Shown: in pieces, positions 13,219 through 55,083 of the stretch
Numbering within the stretch: the first letter of the stretch is position 1
Layout of the letters: each line of letters begins with the position of its first letter
Source: Yuukianura sp. NJ FZ-2021
Taxonomy: Eukaryota
DNA: 64,000 bases
Assembly (NCBI GenBank): GCA_046563655.1
Contig: CM102290.1
Coordinates: 2,666,001-2,730,000, forward strand
Direction: 5' to 3'
Position numbers and translations under genes: made by a program
The notes under the pieces: model-generated
The model's database searches: none
What the model was told of the DNA's origin: nothing
What the model saw: only the letters and a program-made list of their open reading frames with translations

Positions 13219-14204
13219 ATGGATCTAGCGAATCGAATCTCACTCGTCATGGAAGGTCGAGTTCGTACTCGTCGTAAACGCTGGACGATCGTTCAACCAG
13301 TCAATCCGATGGAATTCTATCGCTTGCTTCATGAGAAGTTCCGCGGCAAACCACGATGTGAACAGTACCCTGGTCGTACTCAGTCGTCAACGGATCTCAT
13401 GAAATACGTAAGCTAAACTCTTCAAGCAATTATGATATTGGCCGTGATTTACATGATTTACTATCTTTGACGTTGTAGTACGCTGTACTTGATCCACCTC
13501 CTCCGCATCCCGGTTTGGGCCAACGGTTCGTTCGATACTTAGGTCGGTTGAAGCCATGGCAGTCTCCACGGCCAACATTGAACGAAAAGAAGCAAACAGA
13601 GCAGAATCTGGCTCAGGTTCGAGCTATGAAGAAGGCCAAGCAGGAGAAGACAGTTAAGATGAAAAAGAAACCAGTTACAAAGACAGCAAATGAAGTAAAT
13701 GATGAAGACGAAATTGGTTACGACAAGATCCTTCTGATGACACGCATTCTGGATTTGGAACAGGAGATTCAAGTATGCAAAGAGCAGAACGAACAAGTGA
13801 GTAACCTTCGGGAGAACATGGAACATCAGAATTCGGAACTCAAGAAGTCCAAGAGAGTATTTGACTTGTATCGAGCCAAGACATATGATATCCTCAAGGA
13901 GAAGAAGGAAAGTATTCGGCGAGAGCGAGAGCATGTTCGTAAAGTTGCATTGGAACTTGGGAAAGCACTGGACCGGAAGAACGCCGAAGACCAAACAGAG
14001 GAAATTCATAAACTGCGGAAGAAGGTGAAGGATCTGGAGAAAGAACTGAGTCGACGCACCAAACTTTGGTCCATGACTGCAACGTCCTTGAAGGCTACAA
14101 TTGAGAAGCTGATGAAGGAGAAAGAGGAACTTCAAAAACGTCTTGGAAATGTGAAGGATGAAGAGCCTCGTCCAGGACCATCTTCCAAATGTCGCAAACG
14201 CTAA
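13219..14204 (+). CDS. Uncharacterised 304-aa coiled-coil protein; exons 13219-13407, 13479-14204
   Basis: A phase-0 intron (GTAAGC...TGTAG) joins the 65-aa and 229-aa track ORFs in frame. Long E/K/L-rich heptad region; basic C-terminus EPRPGPSSKCRKR. Confidence 0.72.
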
Positions 14205-14461
14205 TCTCAATCTCAAACGCAAATCACAAGTCAACAAGCGACAAGCGAAAAACAACTATCCAAATTCTTAGTAAAGGTTTCGGTATTCCTTATTACAAGA
14301 AAATAGGCTAAGCCAGGCAAGAATGCAATGTATAAATTTCAATGAATGAATCAATGTTATTTAAAGTAAACGGCGATACTAATGAATGTACATTTGCAAC
14401 CTATTAGCTTAATTTAACAGCAATTACAAACCAGGGTCTTAACTAACAAATATGGTAAAAA

Positions 14462-15858
14462 CTAGTGTCTCGCTTTTAGTTGCTCGACTTGAACTACTGG
14501 ATTTGCTGGACGTGTAGCCGCTGCTGCGGCATTCTTAGATCGTTCTAGTAAGAATTTAAAAGTTGGTCTCGGGCATTTGGTTCCAAATATTCTGCTCAAT
14601 CCGTCTCGAGCGGCCATTTCTTGAGCAATTTCCACTGATTCGCCAAATCCTAATTTAAAAAAGCAACAAAAATTCGTAAGCTTCTTATAACAAATGATTT
14701 GATTTATTAGCATTTGTAACCTGTTCCAATGAGTTTCTTCTCTGGTGTGTACAGACCCACGATGAAAACGGAAAGCAGCGTATTTTTGCCGGCCTCACGA
14801 AGGAGACGGGCTTCGAACGTTTCTCCCTTGGAACTCATTATGTCCGTCAGCATACCCAATGGTTTGGGAACATCCCAAATTTCATTTACATCCTTGTCAC
14901 AAAGATGTGTTATGACAAAGTCCTCAATGAAAGTATTCACACGCTCACGTCCAGATGACTTTTCAATGGCCGACAACAGCGCACAAAAACTCCGAGCAAA
15001 AGTTTCATCACTTGGTGGTATGTCCTAAAATATTCAAATCGAAGTGGATTTCCAGTTTCATAGATTGTAATTTCTTCTAAATCCTAGAATTTGCTCTTCA
15101 GACTTACAACACATTGAATTAGGTCTTTCATTCCAATCTGAGCTGCAATATTTGATAGAACTTTATCTGACACGAGGTATTCCTGAACTGCCCTAAAACC
15201 AACATGAAATCGAGGAATCGAGAGAATTCTTATTATGAGCAATTATACATTATCACTCACTTAATTCCTTCCTCAGGAAATAGTGGAAACTCGGAGATGA
15301 GAACGTTTTGAATATGCTGAAGAAGTGTCCGCCCCTCAGATGACATGTATTCGTTGTCTTTCATAACTAAACCCTCTACGTTTAGGCCAACTTCTTCTTG
15401 ACGCTGTTGTTCTTTTACTACGTATGCTTTATCCGTAAGAGCTTGACGCAGCAAGGAATCTTCCACGTCTTCGTTCAGCCTCTTGCAAAAGGCAAATAGC
15501 TCCGCATTGTAGTTCCTGTTTGAATAATTTGAATGACACTTTTATAAATATTCTCAACTAATCTTGTCAAATTTTTGAGAAATAAGGTTAAAAAAAATTT
15601 AGACGAATTCGAACCTTACTCACTACAATCTGCGCGTGTAACACCTATTCCTTCTGTTTCGAAAAATTAAATTATGTACCAGTCTAGAAATGTGTTCCGA
15701 TGAGCCAGTGGTTTTGGAACCGGATTTTTCTTTTCTTGCTTTATTCGCCTGCTCCGAAGAGAATATATCATCGCACTGACATGATTATGGACGCTTCTGG
15801 AAGGACCTACATTGGTAAGCAAACTTTTTCGAAATAGTATTGGGATTATACGATTCAT
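14462..15858 (-). CDS. mRpL44: Mitochondrial ribosomal protein L44 (mL44), 5 exons
   Basis: RNTFLDW/NYNAELFAFCKRL, LLRQALTDKAY, FIEDFVITHL, EARLLREAGKNTLLSVFIVGLY, GFGESVEIAQEMAARDGL match the RNase III-like plus dsRBD architecture; basic N-terminal presequence. Confidence 0.92.
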
Positions 15859-16417
15859 CTCCGGTGCAGTGTGAACCAAAACACAGCTTGATCAGTTAAT
15901 TCCGTCTCCGCCTTCCTTCACGAAATAACAGAAGATAGATTGATTGATTAGTAATCCACGCTAGAATAAACATAAATCAGTGATTAATCGTGCATAAATA
16001 CCTCGTTTCACTGCTTTCTTCAAGTCGAATGTTAGGTAAGGCGAATCTCGATTAACCTTATTAGCTGATTAGCATTATTAGTAGCTCCGATCCGTTGTTT
16101 TTGATTGATATATGGGCAAGCACAGATAACAACGGCAAAGTACTTGACTGACCTAACAATTTACGATTAGTAACGTATTCGATTGGAAACTGTGATTGTG
16201 AAGTCAGAAACCACAAACCAGAAGTGGCGGCAGGGCACAAAGCACAATAACAAAAACACATGACACAGGAAGGACGGAAACAGGATAGCGGCATAGGACT
16301 TGAATTTTAATTTAACAATTTGCCGCCCACAACGCCACGGTACAAAGCTAGGGCAAATAGAGAATGAACGAAACAAATTAGTTCTACTCAACAGTTATTT
16401 TTAACATTCACCATTAT

Positions 16418-17129
16418 TTATTTGAGGCCACATTCATGAATCATGGCTGCAAGCTGTGTTTCATCTAAACAATATACAAAATGTGTCCAACTAATGAGGC
16501 AAAAGTCTAACTGTTCGGGCGTAACGCAGTTGAAAATGCTGTGAGCAATCTTTACTTTGATGTCCGTTTCCCTCTTGTAAGCCTCTCGGATTTGAATTCC
16601 AGTATCGCCTACAAAATCGTTAGTTCGAGGTTATACGATGTAAAAACGCGTAGTTAAAGATGGGTGCCAATGCCAAATGTAGATGCTTACGGAAGGCTGC
16701 ATAAGTCCAAGTGAGAAACGGAACGGCATTTGGTGTCTGCTTATTTAATTCGTAGAGACTGGACAGTTGTTCCGAATACGCTTTTAGTTTCTTCTCAACG
16801 AGTTCACTCTGTAATACAAATTGACAACCGTAAGAACCGCAAAGTTACGTTCTAATCATCATTCATCAGTGTCTGCATCCTAACCATTTCCTTGATGATG
16901 TTACCCAGTGATTCCATGTCCGACTCTGCCTTCTCACTGTGAAGGAATGGTTTTTGTTAATTAGGAATAACGTACATAATTAAAATGGTTTGAGTTACCC
17001 TGAAGCTTGTATTCTTTGTAAAACATTGACTCCCTTCAGTACTAAACTCTTGTAGGATTGGCATGTGCTATGGATATTGACTACGGTGTCATTCAAAATG
17101 CGTTTCGAACCTGACAACGCACGGCTCAT
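16418..17129 (-). CDS. CINP: CDK2-interacting protein (CINP)-like, 163 aa; exons 17129-16999, 16936-16885, 16808-16691, 16608-16418
   Basis: Hand-spliced: MSRALSGSKRILNDTVVNIH...VPFLTWTYAAFRDTGIQIREAYKRETDIKVKIAHSIF...FCLISWTHFVYCLDETQLAAMIHECGLK*. This resembles recalled CINP motifs (LS.S.R.I.D; P.F.TW...F......YRKE...K; W.H..Y; M..E.G). All three introns are GT-AG and phase-consistent. Confidence 0.8.
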
Positions 17130-17482
17130 CGAGATTTGACCCGTCTTAACTCACGATACACTGTTCTTTGTCTAACTGCAAAATGAAAGCAAATTAGTTC
17201 GACCAGGATCTAAATTCTAGCATCACATTAGGCTTATATTAGATGGTCATGAGAAATTAAACTTACTAAAAGGGTCGTATTTGATTACTTCAATTTTATC
17301 GGCTGTTCGCTCCCTCATCCAAATAAATTGGTGTCCACTGGTTACACTTTCTACCAGGACGTTGATAGTCCTGAAAATACCAAAGGAAATGTAACGTTAA
17401 CGTTCAGAAGGATATTTGAAACAGTCATGTCAACAACTTACTTGCTCTTTACTTTCTTCAACAAAACGTTTGTCAGCAACAT
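17126..17482 (-). CDS. mRpL33: Mitochondrial ribosomal protein L33 (bL33m), 64 aa; exons 17482-17442, 17370-17267, 17175-17126
   Basis: Hand-spliced: MLLTNVLLKKVKSKTINVLVESVTSGHQFIWMRERTADKIEVIKYDPFIRQRTVYRELRRVKSR*, closely resembling insect mRpL33. Confidence 0.93.
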
Positions 17483-17745
17483 AACCCTGCTGGACACCGG
17501 CGTGTGTTGATTTTAGTGTAGCTAAGCTAGTGCAGGAATGAGAACCAATTGCCAAATCCACCGAGTAATTATCCTATCCGTAACTTAAATCCAATCTTCA
17601 ATTTCTTTTCAATTAACTTTAAGCTTTGCTCAAAAAACCACGGTTACTTGTTCGCTTCAGCAATCAGCAAGGGCGAATTTCGGGTTGAAGTAAACTTGAG
17701 TCCCCCGCCTGTCCCCACCACCCGTTCAAATTTTCGCGCTGCTTC

Positions 17746-18443
17746 TAGAGTATTGCAGGGCGCCCTACTGAGCAGGGTAACCCTGTACCCGACCGATACC
17801 CTATTGGTACTGGGCGGGCGGACAAAATGTCGAAAAGGTCACGGGCGGGCGGGTGTTGGAAATTCTCGGAATTGTTGGACAGGGTATGGGCGGGTATGAA
17901 ACCAACAGGGTACAGGGTACCCTGAAATACCCTGTTGAAAGCATTTTAGACAGCCACCCGCAGTACAGTAAAGGAAGTTGGCGGCGTCTCATTAATTTGA
18001 ATCAATGATTTTGTCTACAGCTTTTTCGTTATCAAATCTCCACCTTCGACCAATCACGCGACAAGTTATATTTTGTACCCAAGACCACAATTAACTTATT
18101 TCACTTGTTTATGTTTCATTTTTACGGTCGACTGAAGTTAATTTAAATGATATGCGTTGCTTACGACTCCTCATTGATAAAATGAGTGTAGTTTTTGTAT
18201 ATAAAAGGTACTAAATAATTTAAACTTGTTGATAAGGTATTAGCGGGTGTTGAACCGGTCAGATAAGGGTAATTCAGGGTACCCTGTTGGGCGGACGGGT
18301 ATTTCTTAGTTCTTTAGGAACAGGTCACAGGGCGGGCGGACACATATTCTAGGAATTTGCGGGCGGGCGGGTATTGGGGACGCTGACCTACTGCGGAGTT
18401 GGACAGGGCGGGTAGTAAAGAATGGCTGCCCTGCAATACTCTA
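17746..18443. mobile_element. hAT-type MITE, 698 bp
   Basis: Perfect 16-bp terminal inverted repeats TAGAGTATTGCAGGGC...GCCCTGCAATACTCTA, an exact 8-bp target-site duplication GCTGCTTC (17738-17745 and 18444-18451), and subterminal GGGCGGGCGG/CAGGGTA repeats. Confidence 0.92.
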
Positions 18444-19126
18444 GCTGCTTCAATTGTACCCACCCACTATCCCCACTGGATGGATGCATTTGTCCCCACC
18501 ACAACCAAAAGCAGTATGTCCACCCAGCGGCAGTACAGTAACCTCTCAAGCTGGCAACGTTTTTTTCTTTTTGATTTCGTAAATCCTGCTATATTTTCCC
18601 GTTTGGTCAATAACTCTTTTAGAGCTTATCGAGACATGCGTAATGAGAATAGTCATTCAAAACGCGACTAAAGTCTTAAGTAAGATTAGAGTAAAGTTTG
18701 GAGAGACGAAAGCTACATTCGCTGTGGATCTTTTGTTTTTGATAGCAGAGATTTTGAGTCAGGAATCATTCGGTATTGATTCCAGTATGTGAATATTGAG
18801 GACTGTTAAAACGCAAAATGACAAATACCTATACGTATTAATATCATAACTGTATTGAGTATTGTCCGAATTCATTAAATTCAAGGGTCACTATGAATCT
18901 GATAACCTCTGGTCTATTTAAATCTTGACTATAACCTCAACTAAAACTCTAAACAACAATTTAGGATTAGATTTGCTAAATATGGTAAGTATGCGTGCTA
19001 TACATTTATATTGGTTAGAAAACTGGCGCTAGGATTATTATTTAGTAATTCGTCATTTGTTGGGTACATTGCGAAGAATGATTTTCGTTTGAACGCATAA
19101 CGGAAGAAACTACTAATTTGGTGACA

Positions 19127-19868
19127 TCAGGCTGTCGCGCTAAATTGGTTGACGCTCATCCCTCCAGAACTTGGAACAACGTGAAGACATTGACTGGTAG
19201 CGGGGCGATGGGATGGATATAAAATGGCCATGATGTGGTTGAATCCTTGGATGGCTTTAGTACAGTTCTTTCGAAATCGTTCTACTCCGAAGCCCTCTAT
19301 CGCTCGTCGGAATCCAAATATTTGGGAATCGATTTGTGCATGACGGCGAACCAGGGTTTGCGATTGATTTTCTGGATTTATCGTATAGACGACATTTTCA
19401 CTAATGCCCTTCACAATGAAAATAAAATAATTGAAATTAACCTGAAAAGTAACCACTGTGCTAACGTTAAGTAGTAATTGCTGACTCACCATTACTCTGG
19501 TGTAACCGACGTTGCGTGTGAATGTTTTGATTGTCTTGTCTTTAGGATTAATATACGAATCCTCAATGATGGACACGATGGTTTTCTGCACAAATCGTTC
19601 ACCCCATTTTGGAACAGAATTTGTCTTTGTAATAAGTCTTCTTGTGAATAAGGAATCCCCTTGAATTTCTCGATGCACCGTGTCCTCCGATAGTACATGT
19701 GTACTGCAAGAAAGTATAACACACAAAAAAAAACAATGAAATACCAAAACATTGATTCAATTTAAATAATACGTACCTGTATGGGTTGGGATATCTCAGC
19801 CAAAAGGCTTTCGCCACTTGGTCCCAAGTGTAATTGAACACGTTCGTTGAATCGAAGTACTTTACCAT
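19127..19868 (-). CDS. PRELID1: PRELI domain protein 1 (mitochondrial intermembrane-space lipid transfer), 3 coding exons
   Basis: MVKYFDSTNVFNYTWDQVAKAFWLRYPNPY/STHVLSEDTVHREI...TKTNSVPKWGERF...IIEDSYINPKDK...TRNVG...FGFRRAIEGFGVERFRKNCTKA. Confidence 0.93.
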
Positions 19869-20544
19869 TTTAAAATGAGACCCGTCCTAATGGAATTATT
19901 CCCACTTCTTCCTGGCTACTCAAGGTTGACGAAGACGATACGAATTGGTAGATTCACTAATGCCCTGTTGAATATAAATAGCCATTTTCAATTTATTCAA
20001 TTAGAATCATCCTTGAAAATCAAGTACCAGGTCAGAAACGAATTAAACAACCAGTCGGTCATATTCGTATCTAGCTGAAACAAAATAAAGAACAGCACGA
20101 TTTCTTTGTTTACTCACCTGTTTTTAGCGTAACCCCAAGCTTAGATGTGGAAGACAAAGTGCTCTGGAATCCGGACGTTAACTCCAGCATCATTTTTATC
20201 CCCTCAAATAAAGGTGTCAGTCACTTCAGCTTATCCATAAAGTTAAAGTGCAAAAGATTATTACTGTTGGTCATTCTGAATGATGTGAAATGATCGCTTC
20301 GCATGCTAACTTTCAAATTTTTTTGCGTTCTTAAATTACACCGGCGTACGGTGCTGTCAAGCAATGTTGCCAAATGAACGTGCGAAATTTGATGCGAAAA
20401 AGGATCCAAGCAATGTTTCTGGATATCCACTTTTTCGACATTTCATCCATTGCTGGACATGCTGTGTAAGAAATGGACAAAATGGATGCATCCAAAAGCG
20501 CGGACCTATACCAGCGGGGTTTGAATTAATTCAATTATATTATA

Positions 20545-31700: not shown

Positions 31701-32877
31701 AGGTCAAAACCAGAACAAAGTTTTGCACTGAACGCATGAACAATTGGAAGTCGCAACTGTGAGAAGTGTACTATTTTGACAATAAATGTGAAGAAGGGAT
31801 TGTTGTGTTTAATTTGGACTGAGCAATAGGCCAATTTTTTACCAGTGTTTTCCATTAACAAACTGTAGCCGGACTTCCCATCTTTCATCCATCACCTATT
31901 CTTCATTGTTGAATCCCTACACTTAATCACCTTCAACTTAAACCAAGAAGCCGCCTCACTTTTCCTTGATGGCAAAGTAAAGCGTGAGAACTGTTGTCCA
32001 TATAACCATTCTGCTATTTAATGGTCATCCTTGTCTTACCATAATTTCCTCCGGTTTGCTCAAATTACCATTCTTACACGTTCTTTTACAACTTACAACA
32101 AGGAATTGTTCCAAATCAGACCAATTGCATTCAAGACGCTGCTTCAACAAATTAGTAAGTGCCATCCATTTCCCTAATGAGTACTACTCAGTTACAGCAC
32201 TTCAAGCTTTGGCGGTACATGTGACCCAGCGGCGTAAGAACGAACAAACCCTGTGTGTTTGGAGGCCGTAGGGCCTGTCAAAAATGTCTTCAACAAAATC
32301 ACGTCTCGCTCGACTTTGGCGGCTTACTTACGAACACAAAATGAATCACTGAGCCCTGACCACTGCTATTCTTTGGATCAAAGGTGGGATTCCAGAAGAT
32401 CAACAAAACTACTCGTTGAGAAAGTGTGGAGGAAAGGATGATGGTGGCGGCAACTAGTAGTTGACTTCCTCGTTTGTTACAAAGTTAAGATTTCCTGGAC
32501 TCTATTTTCCTGGATTTTGGGTCCTGGAAGGGTGATTAGCCTCTCCCAAAGTTGTCAGCTCAGAAGACAGATTATTATTCTGGAGGAGGAGGGGGGAGCC
32601 TGGAAGGGGGCTCCAAAACATACAAAACGAATTAGACGAAGAGCGAGGAAGTGGAACAGAAGACTACAAGGGTGACAGTCTCTTTTTGGATTCATCTTCA
32701 TCAACTCTGGCCCCTTTGCGAGCCTTCGAACTACAAAGTTGACTAGGAAGGACGTCCTGAGTGACACCCCTGGGACAGGAAGAGGTGTTCCCTGTCTTTC
32801 TTCAGCAAAACTCGACTTGACCTAACGACCTTGATCTGTTTCTTTTTTTTATTTTGGAAAAACTACCTAAAGTAACC

Positions 32878-35800
32878 ATGGCCATGGTAATTTTCTGGAT
32901 TGCTCAGTTGATCGTTTTCGTGGCAGTGATTTTGTCTGCAATTCTAGGAAACTCTTTAGTCATTGTTGCTGTAATGAGAAATCGAAAACTACGAACTTGG
33001 ACCAATTATTTTGTAGTGTCCCTAGCTCTTGCAGATACGTTAGTGGCCCTCTGTGCCATGACATTCAATGCTAGTCAGACTCTGAACAATGGTGTCTGGT
33101 TATTTGACCAAGTGACCTGCGACCTCTGGAACTCCCTCGACGTCTACTTTTGTACAACTTCTATTCTTCATCTCTGCTGTATTTCTGTGGACCGCTACTA
33201 CGCCATTTGCAAACCGCTTCAGTATCCTCTTACCATGACAGCCAGAACTGTTCGCGTTATGCTCGGTAAGTAAAAAATTCATATTATATTACCATATAAA
33301 ACCGAAAAAGAATCCTGTCTTGATTTCTTTGAAAGTTGTTAGATTCTCTAATTCCCAAGAGAGGTACAAGACTAGAATTAAATCTCTTAGTTTTCAAATC
33401 GACTCGAGATGAATAGAGATTCAAACTCCAACTTTCCCCAAGCTATTCTCATGTTCCACTGCTCGTTCCCTACAAATCCGAATTGTTACAATTTGTCAAT
33501 TTTCTCACCGAATTCGGTGAACGAAGAGGCAGGTGAAAGCGGGCGTTTTGATTTGCATACTAACGAAGGACCCATTAAGGGAAGGAGGAGAGTCAAGGAA
33601 AACTGTAGGACTTCTCCCAGCTACGTCCTCTGAGAGTCATTACGAAAATTTAGCACATCCTTTGATTACTAGACTTTCTCCCTCCGGACACAAAAGGAAT
33701 CCTCCAAGAGAAACCCAGATTTCTACACTCAGCGTAACAAAAGTTCACGAAATTCCAAAACTTTAATTATTACCACTCCGATTTAGGCCTGAAAATGATT
33801 CAGACGCTCTGTTTTCAAAAAATGTCGCGTAAAACAGGAACTTTTAGTGAAAAATAAGAAGAACGAAGAAACAAAATTTTGTAGAAGAAAAGTTAATGCG
33901 GACATGGCAGTTTAATTAGGCAGTCTCCTTGCGTCACTTTCTTTCTGAAGCACGAATAGTACGTCAATGGTTTTGACTTCCGGGATTGTGTGTGTGTGTG
34001 ACTCTGTCAGTCAACTTTAGACAATCGATAGGAGTGACCTCTTCTTCCGATTGAAATTGACAGGTCAACCTATCTTGACAACTACATTTTCCGAAACGGG
34101 GTAGTTAGTATGTCAAACAGTTATACGAAAATACGCTAAGCTTCCTACGCTCCTGACACTTTCAATCCCTTCCGCCTCCAGGTTCAAAACAATTTTATTG
34201 AAAAAGTGTTCCCATCCGAAGGATTCAATCAAGCACTATCTCAAGTACCAAGGAAAAAGCGCGCCAAGAAAATGAAATTGAATCCCTTTTTTGCATCTAC
34301 TTTCCCCACAATTTTCTCTTTTGAATCACACACAAAACGACACACGTCAGACACATGCTACTGTCGTGACAATGACTGAGAATACGCTCTGGGACAGTTA
34401 GGCTCATTCAGAACAGTTCCCAAAACCCCCACATACAATGCTTGGTGGCAGAAATTTTTGAAAAACGGTTCAATTTATGAAGATGTTTCCTTTTGCAAAT
34501 TGGGCAAATCTTGTCTGAAACTTTCCAAATTGTTAATAAACTTGACTCAGAAATTTTCAATTGTGGTTTCCTTCAACCTTGATTTTGACTTTGGACTGGA
34601 GTGGTAAAGACGCATCAGGAATTGGGTTACCCATTACGCTTAAACTACTAAAAAGGAAAGTTGTAAACTTGAATAAGTGTGAGGGTGTTGTCATTAAGGT
34701 AAACGACATGACAATGGTGAAAAACACAACGTCGGTATACAATTTCAGCATAAAGGACCTAAGTTTCACTCTGCTAAATTCTGAAAAAAAAAATTCTCAT
34801 TTTCAATAAGAAAATGTCTACCTTTTAAGGGACGGGAAAACGTAAAACATGTTAAGAGTTAACGCAATCTACTTCAGTCTCCTCTGCATTTAAAAGCCAA
34901 ATAATCGTTAAATACATTTTTAGAAACAATTACAAAACTATATAATTTCCAGAAAATCTAATTAAATTTCCAGAAAATCTAATTACAAATTTATTCTGAA
35001 GTCTGCCTTTTCTAAATACATTTCTGAAGAATGCTGAGTTAAAATTACATTTTTAGCATAGAAGCTATGGTTATGGTTAAAACAATTCCAGGCCAGAATT
35101 TTATATTCCAGAAAATAGGAAATACTAGTTTTTCTGTCAAAATACTCAATTAAAGTAAACACTACTTTCGGAATTCGTTCGTTCAGAGGTTAGAAACCTA
35201 AAAAATAGCCTGAGTTTGAAATATTCTAAATTTGGTAACAGAAGTGATCCGCTGAAGGTTTAGGAAAAGAGTTTCTGACTCGATTCCATAATTTATGCTA
35301 TCCCACGCTTTCTCTGAATCTGGCATCAGTTTACCTTTTAAGTAACATCCATTCCCCTGGAGTTTACTGGCAGTCTGTAACCTATGGAAGTCTGCCCAAT
35401 AAAACTTCTCCCTTAAAAGAAGACTTGATTAGTTCAAGATCAGGATCCTTAAAAGTTTTCTCAAGGACGGAGATACCTTAAGTGGAGGTAAAAGGAACAC
35501 ACTTTTCCTATACTTTCTTTCTAATCTCCATGAATCTACAAACTTAAAAGCCTTTCCATGCAGTTTCCAATTCCACCTAGGAGAAAGCTTTCTTTGCCTA
35601 GCCTAGCTTAGCTCTACATGGTGTAGCACAATTTGTTCATACCGGGTCCACCTTGGTCACAGGTGACTAAAACTGGGAAATGCGGATACGGTGAGACTAA
35701 AGTCTCAAAACGCCCCGTCTCAACGACTTTAGGTCTAACAGGTTTTTCTGGGGCTTTGGCTTTCCGTTGCCAAATGATTTGCGGACGGTGGATATTAGAA

Positions 35801-53800: not shown

Positions 53801-55083
53801 TAAGACACTTTTTTCGATAGTCGAAGGAAAAGGATTTGGAAGTGATGCCAAATTCTGCTTCTGTAAAACCAATTCCCTTAATCGACTCAAGAGCGTGTCA
53901 ATTCCTCCAGCCATTGTAAATTTTCCACGAGTTTTCCGTGCTCTCGGTATCGAATTGTAAAACAAAACTTGTCCCAACATTTCAATAAATTCCGCACCCA
54001 AAACAAAACTCCTCCAAAACCTCATATCAAACCAAGTAGTCCAAAAACCAAAACTTTAAGAGAAAAAAAATTGGCATTTTGGGGATTTCAATTTTTTGTT
54101 CAAACGGCGCTTATCCTCCTTTCGGCAAAAAAGATTCACTGGAAAGATTGGAAAAGTCTTTAGTTTGACTCCAGAAAGGATCCTGTGAGCTGAGCTTAAA
54201 GTGTTAAAAGTTCTCGTTAGTCAAGGCTCATTGCCTTGTGGTTCCAGAAAAAGTCATTTGGTAAACGGCGAGTAAAGCTAAAGTGCCACTAGGGCACAAT
54301 TATTTAAACGTCATCCAGCCATCTATTCTTCAAATCCTTTGCCCCTAAATGGTCAATCCTTAGGCAAACTATGACAAAACCTGAACATCATACTAGCCTA
54401 ACTGAGAGTGAACTGAGGCGTTCAAAATTATTTTTCAACTTTCAAAACTTCAACCTCGAAAATCTTTTTTTTTTCGAAACCTGAGAATAGGGAGAAAGTT
54501 TGAACTCTCGTGTGTGAATGATGCTTGGCATTCTAAATTCTTTAACTCTCTGCACAAACTTTCCTGTATTAAGATTAACGTTTTGTTAATAGTTGGTTCC
54601 CCCGTTACAGTGCAGAGCATGAAGCGGGAGCACAAGGCCGCTCGGACACTGGGCATCATCATGGGCGTCTTCATTTTGTGCTGGCTTCCATTTTTTACTT
54701 GGTACGTCGTAAGTACACTTTGTGGAGAAAAACGATGCCCTACACCCGACTGGGTAGTCGTCCTCGTCTTCTGGATTGGTTACTGCAACAGTAGTCTCAA
54801 CCCCATCATCTACGCAGTGAGTAACACCAAACATAACCTTAATCCCAGTTTACTTCAACCGCAAGTTAAAAGTCCGTTTTTTAACTTACAGTATTTTAAC
54901 CGCGACTTTCGTGAAGCATTCAAAGTTGTGCTCAACTCCGTCTTCTGCCACCGCTGCAAGGCTCTCAATCCCGATGGAGACTCCGAAAATGGACCACGGA
55001 TTTCCATTGCCTCATCCAATCCAAATCCACTTCCCTCCACTAGCAAAAATGCTCCTACCAATCGAACGGAGGACCCAGCGTAG
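32878..55083 (+). CDS. Octbeta1R: Beta-adrenergic-like octopamine receptor, about 368 aa; exons 32878-33265, 38757-38851, 40368-40513, 52480-52559, 54611-54816, 54892-55083
   Basis: [23 protein letters not shown] (Asp3.32), [54 protein letters not shown] (resembles the Octbeta1R third loop), [35 protein letters not shown]. All splice phases are consistent; AATAAA at 55305. Confidence 0.9.
39445..39895. mobile_element. Degenerate foldback/MITE-like element in receptor intron 2
   Basis: Left arm of GAATTAC/CCGAATGAATTTC motifs is mirrored on the right by GAAATTCATTCGG/GTAATTC; central GC hairpin CCGCGCC-TTC-GGCGCGG at 39640-39656. Confidence 0.6.
52639..52970. mobile_element. MITE remnant with AATCCGGAT subterminal repeats, receptor intron 4
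   Basis: Multiple (A)ATCCGGAT(T) motifs clustered at both ends. Termini match poorly and no TSD was identified. Confidence 0.5.

Follow-up and report, generated by a model that had tools for sequence, protein, structure and literature searches.

Organization of the locus

On the minus strand of the window (the whole stretch of 64,000 nucleotides that was analysed), positions 17482-16418 hold a unit of six exons and five introns that contains two open reading frames (ORFs). The gene model was rebuilt by script from the window sequence, and the region 15800-18200 of this strand was inspected. Every intron is of the GT..AG type and short (62-91 nt, namely 71, 91, 62, 76 and 82 nt in order), and the spliced coding part amounts to 683 nt. 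ORF1, which is mRpL33-like, comprises 64 codons from the ATG at 17482-17480 to the TGA at 17128-17126. ORF2, which is CINP-like, comprises 163 codons from the ATG at 17129-17127 to the TAA at 16420-16418 and has a reading frame that is -1 with respect to that of ORF1. The end of ORF1 and the beginning of ORF2 share four nucleotides (ATGA) within one exon, without any intergenic space, and the ATG of ORF2 is found 46 nt into an exon whose acceptor serves the splicing of mRpL33. The features of the unit are collected in Table 1.

Table 1. Features of the mRpL33/CINP-like unit, in positions of the window.
Feature	Positions	Strand	Description
Exon 1	17442..17482	-	ORF1 ATG at 17482-17480, 13 codons + 2 nt, donor GTAAGT
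ORF1 exon 2	17267..17370	-	104 nt; putative L33 core encoded here
Shared exon	16999..17175	-	Last 16 codons + TGA of ORF1, then first 43 codons + 2 nt of ORF2, -1 frame
ORF2 exon 2	16885..16936	-	52 nt; donor GTTAGG
ORF2 exon 3	16691..16808	-	118 nt; includes ATTAAA at 16749
ORF2 last exon	16418..16608	-	191 nt; TAA at 16420-16418
ATGA stop/start overlap	17126..17129	-	ORF2 ATG 17129-17127 over ORF1 TGA 17128-17126
TGA in ORF2 frame	17151..17153	-	21 nt 5' of ORF2 ATG; stop-to-stop ORF begins at 17150
AATAAA	16417..16422	-	Overlaps ORF2 stop; no other canonical poly(A) signal in the unit
Inr-like TCATTC	17536..17541	-	59 nt upstream of ORF1 ATG; candidate transcription start site (TSS); chance-level frequency
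Inr-like TCATTT	17181..17186	-	Intron 2, 57 nt upstream of ORF2 ATG; candidate internal TSS that would give an mRNA with ORF2 alone; chance-level frequency

The original prediction had placed the ATGA overlap inside the shared exon, and our reconstruction reproduces it at exactly these positions. It had also pointed to two stops in the ORF2 frame ahead of the overlap, and both were found again: the TGA 21 nt upstream of the ATG, and a TAG at the very beginning of the shared exon. The TGA rules out an N-terminal extension of ORF2 or its fusion to upstream coding sequence. Past the overlap, no frame but that of ORF2 remains open, and its junction with the next exon, which is supported by homology, is in phase. 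The last structural claim, that an mRNA skipping exon 2 would run into a TAG at once, was likewise borne out by calculation: joining exon 1 to the shared exon leaves a 14-codon ORF closed by this TAG, 42 nt before the ATG of ORF2. Exon 2 itself is flanked by good splice sites. Four features had gone unmentioned in the original prediction, namely the ATTAAA at 16749, an AATACA at 17013, the Inr-like hexamer of intron 2 and the short-uORF mRNA that exon-2 skipping would generate.

Identity of the upstream ORF

Database searches were run exon by exon rather than with the spliced proteins. With the 34-aa fragment encoded by exon 2 of ORF1, the sole Pfam match was PF00471, the family of ribosomal protein L33, at an E-value of 0.053 and with 14.3 bits where the cutoff is 25, over positions 15-36 of the 47 of the profile. 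When the same exon was compared with the PDB, three of the six matches were bacterial L33 or mitochondrial bL33m chains, with E-values of about 0.6. In the Atlas, the best three named clusters carry PF00471 with scores of 0.86-0.87, which we take as leads only. The predicted protein is small and basic (64 aa, with 15 K+R against 6 D+E), as fits L33, whose members are very small and basic, with about 50-65 aa. Other searches brought nothing for this ORF: there was no match in NCBIfam, none in the PDB for a 27-aa stretch around exon 3, no candidate in a protein search with a 49-aa stretch around the L33 exon 2, and no locus when the L33 stretch was searched in genome contigs. Three weak searches nevertheless agree with each other, and ORF1 thus very likely encodes the mitochondrial ribosomal protein bL33m (mRpL33).

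The downstream ORF and its relation to CINP

ORF2 is a real gene, as validated by homology. A HMMER search with its last exon against 1.84 billion representative sequences returned three matches at E ≤ 0.001, the best of which (4.2e-14) is a protein of 120 aa, hereafter P0001. When the spliced ORF2 product was compared with P0001 by blastp, 62 of 124 positions were identical (50%, E 5e-44) and the alignment was colinear across the exon junctions. Counted over aligned residues, the identity is 1/4 in the shared exon, 8/18 in ORF2 exon 2, 22/36 in exon 3 and 31/62 in the last exon. As judged from this alignment, the last two splice junctions of ORF2 appear well confirmed, and the first one weakly. 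A further homologue, P0003, shares 19 of 44 aligned residues with the last exon. The original prediction had named the homology of the downstream ORF as something to be checked, and the comparison with P0001 settles this point in its favour.

The alignment with P0001 begins at residue 40 of ORF2, and no homologue backs residues 1-39; that translation starts at the ATGA is thus argued from the open frame and from the splice phase. The first exon of ORF2 matched nothing in the PDB or in Pfam.

Homology to CINP was reached through P0001. Searched against the PDB, P0001 gave four matches, all of them human CINP, with E-values of 0.0028-0.0044 and 113-116 aligned residues reaching the C-terminal end of CINP. 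No C1orf109 chain was present among these matches. The clusters found near P0001 in the Atlas are C1orf109-like and CINP-like, and the two human proteins have been described as sharing similar five-helix structures (PMC12019325). Direct matches to CINP were obtained neither with the three ORF2 exons that were searched nor with a 61-position profile of the ORF2 C-terminus (alignment A2) run against the PDB, and Pfam and NCBIfam placed P0001 in no family at their cutoffs. The assignment is thus indirect, since ORF2 reaches human CINP only through P0001, and we regard ORF2 as a likely, rather than a certain, CINP member. The pair of identities proposed originally therefore stands in part: L33 was retrieved by weak concordant searches and CINP by way of an intermediate, whereas a direct match to CINP did not materialize.

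Attempts to widen the set of relatives were of little help. The last exon of ORF2 matched nothing among longer proteins, P0001 used as a query retrieved only itself, looking up the clusters of P0001 and P0003 yielded no names, and no locus was found either for P0001 in metagenome contigs or for alignment A2 in genome contigs. A metagenome locus matched by alignment A2 (L001) was rejected as spurious, as judged by its appearance: the match is a 19-residue stretch lying antisense to ribosomal-protein-like ORFs. In alignments A1 and A3, MAFFT put the tail of ORF2 exon 3 in the wrong place, and neither of these was used as a profile. The AlphaFold model of the C-terminal 120 aa of P0001 (alignment A2) displays four helices with a mean pLDDT of 46.2, which is too poor for a comparison of folds.

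Human CINP is not known to have any link to MRPL33. The solved chains of human CINP (PDB 8rhn, 9lgo, 8cih and 9gwj) have 196-242 residues, against 163 aa for ORF2, and the identity is low. Human CINP is the adaptor of the SPATA5-SPATA5L1-C1orf109-CINP complex (PMC12019325). No insect orthologue was named in the parts of the CINP literature covered by our search.

A probable shared mRNA

Between positions 17700 and 16250 of the minus strand, AATAAA occurs once, over the stop codon of ORF2, and no canonical poly(A) signal is observed between the stop of mRpL33 and that of ORF2. The absence of an AATAAA before the end of the CINP-like gene, like that of an intergenic space, had been part of the original prediction and is confirmed. 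Since the only AATAAA of this interval overlaps the ORF2 stop, no 3' end proper to mRpL33 is evident, and its transcripts most likely run through ORF2. Two poly(A) variants are present, the ATTAAA in ORF2 exon 3 (exon 5 of the unit) and the AATACA at 17013 in the shared exon. A dicistronic gene as understood by FlyBase has a transcript, known from cDNA, RNA-seq or TSS data, that covers the two coding regions, and two distinct ORFs of the same strand that leave no room for a separate 3' end or promoter; as to the second of these features, the two ORFs described here even overlap by four nucleotides in one exon. Given one exon in common and the lack of both an intergenic space and a canonical poly(A) signal in between, the simplest reading is a shared mRNA, and a single messenger probably codes for the two proteins. 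A search of Rfam over positions 14000-20000 gave no match at E ≤ 0.1.

A rival explanation is that ORF2 has an mRNA of its own, made from an internal promoter in exon 2, intron 2 or exon 3 or by skipping of exon 2, and that the dicistronic mRNA serves mainly mRpL33. The annotation of D. melanogaster gives some weight to this idea: only 45 of the 159 dicistronic pairs annotated in FlyBase are exclusively dicistronic (Crosby et al. 2015, PMC4528330), and in the mRpL53/CG33155 pair, where 8 nt separate the two genes, the downstream gene has an alternative promoter (PMC4528330). At the present locus, the Inr-like TCATTT that starts at 17186 is followed by no other ATG before that of ORF2. However, such hexamers are found at chance level (two in 900 nt against about one estimated by chance), and this one lies within the polypyrimidine tract of the acceptor of intron 2. 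As for the skipping of exon 2, it would turn ORF1 into a 14-codon uORF followed by a spacer of 42 nt, a classical short-uORF mRNA on which ordinary reinitiation at the ORF2 AUG would be possible, but the good splice sites of exon 2 speak against it. Altogether, we consider a separate ORF2 mRNA somewhat unlikely, although it is the most serious of the alternatives.

Access of ribosomes to the second ORF

The reading that we favour, tentatively and at slightly less than even chances, is that of a dicistronic nuclear gene whose shared mRNA is read by leaky scanning to ORF2. The analysis shows how the exons are arranged, that the two ORFs overlap, that ORF2 is a real gene and that no canonical poly(A) signal separates the two; from these observations we infer a single transcript, the translation of ORF2 from it and the leaky-scanning route. 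One primary transcript would start upstream of 17482 and be polyadenylated just after 16418. Splicing would remove the five short introns and yield an mRNA of about 0.7-0.8 kb, carrying the 64-aa bL33m ORF and then, across the ATGA, the 163-aa CINP-like ORF. The coding sequence of ORF2 would then act as the 3' untranslated region of mRpL33. Most 40S subunits would initiate at the first AUG and produce mRpL33, while a fraction would bypass this AUG as well as a weak in-frame AUG and initiate at the third one, giving the CINP-like protein.

Two ATGs precede that of ORF2 in the spliced mRNA, at positions 0 and 93, and both are in the ORF1 frame. This agrees with the original prediction, which had listed a single internal AUG, in frame, within mRpL33, and a U at position -3 of the CINP AUG. 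The AUG of ORF1 has a G at -3 and a T at +4, the internal AUG at position 93 has a weak context, and that of ORF2, with its T at -3, is weak as well. No ATG is found in the 218 nt upstream of ORF1 on the minus strand. ORF1 contains no out-of-frame ATG, which is not significant: the probability of finding none is 0.37 when the order of codons is shuffled and 0.096 when synonymous codons are resampled (20000 trials each). Leaky scanning fits this arrangement, because few AUGs precede the ORF2 AUG and the first of them is non-optimal; indeed, the optimal start context in flies is CAAAATG (PMC9681215), from which that of ORF1 differs. On the other hand, the purine at -3 of the ORF1 AUG means that its leakiness may be small. 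It also speaks against leaky scanning that the ORF2 AUG bears a T at -3, while the downstream AUG of the Drosophila sloth transcript stands in an optimal context (PMC9681215).

Coupled termination-reinitiation at the AUGA, in which the 40S subunit would be kept after mRpL33 has been made and would restart at the overlapping AUG, thus fixing the ratio of the two proteins, appears to us unlikely, and more so than a separate ORF2 mRNA. The exact 4-nt overlap of stop and start and the shortness of ORF1 (64 codons) are what such a mechanism would call for. Supporting this idea, five transcripts with overlapping stop and start codons appeared to depend on a mechanism of this kind in human cells (PMC3923131), and DENR-MCT-1 promotes reinitiation in Drosophila (PMC5972666). 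However, reinitiation after protein-coding ORFs is described as rare, and the activity of DENR-MCT-1 drops with the length of the uORF (PMC5972666). Moreover, the UGGGA core of the TURBS motif (TGGGA in the DNA) is absent from the 191 nt of spliced mRNA upstream of the overlap, and the predicted fold of the shared exon is ordinary, being no more stable than that of shuffled sequences (z +0.85; 162 of 200 shuffles fold at least as well).

One would also wonder whether the two ORFs form an obligate and conserved translational couple, so that the synthesis of the CINP-like protein, as adaptor of the cytosolic pre-60S maturation ATPase, would depend strictly on ribosomes that have either completed or bypassed bL33m on the same mRNA immediately before. 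This stronger form of the proposal seems quite improbable to us. If it were true, a single message would set the proportion in which a mitochondrial and a cytosolic factor of ribosome biogenesis are produced.

The start at the ATGA could also remain unused, with ORF2 beginning at its next in-frame ATG (residue 52, in the exon 16936-16885) and the intervening stretch serving as an intercistronic spacer. The homologue support beginning only at residue 40, the single identity among four aligned residues in the shared exon and the lack of any PDB or Pfam match for the first exon of ORF2 would agree with this. Nevertheless, we hold such a start for very improbable: the ORF2 frame is the only one open after the ATGA and is in phase with the next exon, P0001 continues for 11 residues upstream of its counterpart of residue 52, and out-of-frame ATGs lie between the ATGA and this residue. 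Human CINP, for its part, possesses an additional N-terminal portion, the alignment with P0001 beginning at residues 77-123 of its chains.

Finally, a programmed -1 frameshift fusing mRpL33 to the CINP-like protein, which the original prediction had admitted and with which the -1 frame of ORF2 would agree, can be dismissed for practical purposes: only the 21 nt from the TGA at 17153-17151 to the ATG leave the ribosome room to shift, and they contain no X_XXY_YYZ heptamer; CCCTTTT, the sole such heptamer in frame (mRNA position 137), runs directly into a TAG, and no stable structure follows.

Comparison with known dicistronic genes

The dicistronic genes of animals serve to study the ways in which eukaryotic ribosomes gain access to a second ORF. 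If its mRNA is indeed shared, the present unit, with a 4-nt overlap, a first ORF of 64 codons and two upstream AUGs, would be a clean addition to this set. The association of a mitoribosomal protein with a putative adaptor of cytosolic 60S maturation also merits comparison across insects. The short introns, the gene content and one row of the Atlas suggest that the locus itself belongs to an arthropod. It can be added that ORF2, which starts within the last coding exon of a different gene, may for this reason be missed or wrongly merged by automatic annotation pipelines.

The literature that we searched reports neither a pairing of mRpL33 with CINP nor a link between mRpL33 and dicistronic transcripts. 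In D. melanogaster, the pairing may be absent, as mRpL33 occurs in none of the six (of seven) supplementary files of PMC4528330 that were searched, which accompany the survey of dicistronic genes. The architecture itself is uncommon, but it is already known in flies. The statement that AUGA overlaps are unusual in animal nuclear genes, made in the original prediction, was overstated in view of the FlyBase pairs, two of which have an overlap of this very length: CG33649/DNApol-gamma35 and Tgs1/moi are listed as 'OVERLAP 4 nt' (PMC4528330, supplementary file 2), and five more pairs, in ten rows of the same table, as 'OVERLAP 1 nt' (PMC4528330). CG33649/DNApol-gamma35 and Tgs1/moi resemble the present unit in that two unrelated proteins are encoded on one mRNA with a 4-nt overlap of stop and start, and both members of each pair are annotated 'all di/polycistronic' (PMC4528330). 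They differ from it in the genes that are paired and in their transcripts, which are supported by cDNA or RNA-seq, whereas that of the mRpL33/CINP-like unit is inferred (PMC4528330 for the fly pairs).

Another parallel can be drawn with mRpL53/CG33155 from D. melanogaster, in which a small mitoribosomal gene is also found upstream, exists only on a dicistronic mRNA and is followed almost directly by an unrelated gene (PMC4528330). Here the differences are the gap between the genes instead of an overlap, the alternative promoter of the downstream gene and another partner protein (PMC4528330). The sloth1 and sloth2 ORFs, for their part, are carried by one Drosophila mRNA and are both translated, the downstream one by leaky scanning in reporters (PMC9681215). 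As in the present unit, the upstream ORF is short, has a mitochondrial product and starts in a non-optimal context; on the other hand, the two sloth ORFs lie 5 nt apart, are paralogous and have an optimal downstream AUG, unlike ORF2 with its T at -3 (PMC9681215).

Likenesses exist outside flies as well. The termination-reinitiation systems of caliciviruses, which rely on TURBS, and their cellular candidates share with our unit the overlapping stop and start (PMC5972666, PMC3923131), but the viral ORFs are much longer than ORF1, and neither their UGGGA core nor an unusual structure was found here (PMC5972666 for the viral systems). The bicistronic loci of green algae are nuclear as well, but they belong to another kingdom and concern unrelated genes (PMC11892635).

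The mRpL33/CINP-like unit thus does not call for a new kind of mechanism, as flies already possess annotated examples of the same architecture. It would rather be a dicistronic nuclear gene of the kind that has been annotated by the score in Drosophila.

Possible internal repeat in the CINP-like protein

In two MAFFT alignments, the P-F-L-T-W-T-Y stretch that ends exon 3 of the 163-residue CINP-like second ORF (ORF2) was placed on a W-T-H segment encoded by the final exon, a pairing that hints at an internal repeat in the protein (see the table). The CINP-like profile returned a single metagenome locus, L001. Its matching segment (895-951) was rejected as a CINP-like relative, being a 19-residue chance match antisense to ORFs that by eye resemble ribosomal-protein genes. 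This chance match shows that the short W-T/S-H pattern is not specific.

Features in and around the mRpL33/CINP-like unit
Feature	Window position	Strand	Basis or remark
Repeat-like stretches, ORF2 residues about 88-99 vs 136-147	exons 16808-16691 and 16608-16418		MAFFT alignment
Open stretch, 241 codons	13479-14201	+	K- and E-rich, coiled-coil-like by eye
18-nt pair akin to the 22-nt inverted repeat	17879-17935
Inverted repeat, 22 nt, 95% complementary	17912-17933 + 18266-18287		arms separated by 332 nt
PRELI-like exon	19130-19756	-	PF04707 match, E 1.6e-28
PF00001 N-terminal part, profile 1-106	32821-33270	+	open stretch, rhodopsin-family 7TM receptor match
PF00001 C-terminal part, profile 193-260	54412-55080	+	open stretch, rhodopsin-family 7TM receptor match

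Genomic surroundings

The 241-codon open stretch is convergent with the 3' end of the six-exon mRpL33/CINP-like unit and gave no Pfam match at E <= 0.001. Immediately upstream of the unit lies the 22-nt inverted repeat, which might represent a small foldback or MITE-like element located in the promoter region. Farther away, the two PF00001 stretches are probably exons of a single GPCR gene separated by an intron of more than 21 kb. Finally, the neighbouring gene upstream of the unit, on the same strand, includes an exon with a match to the PRELI-like family, which, like mRpL33, has mitochondrial products.
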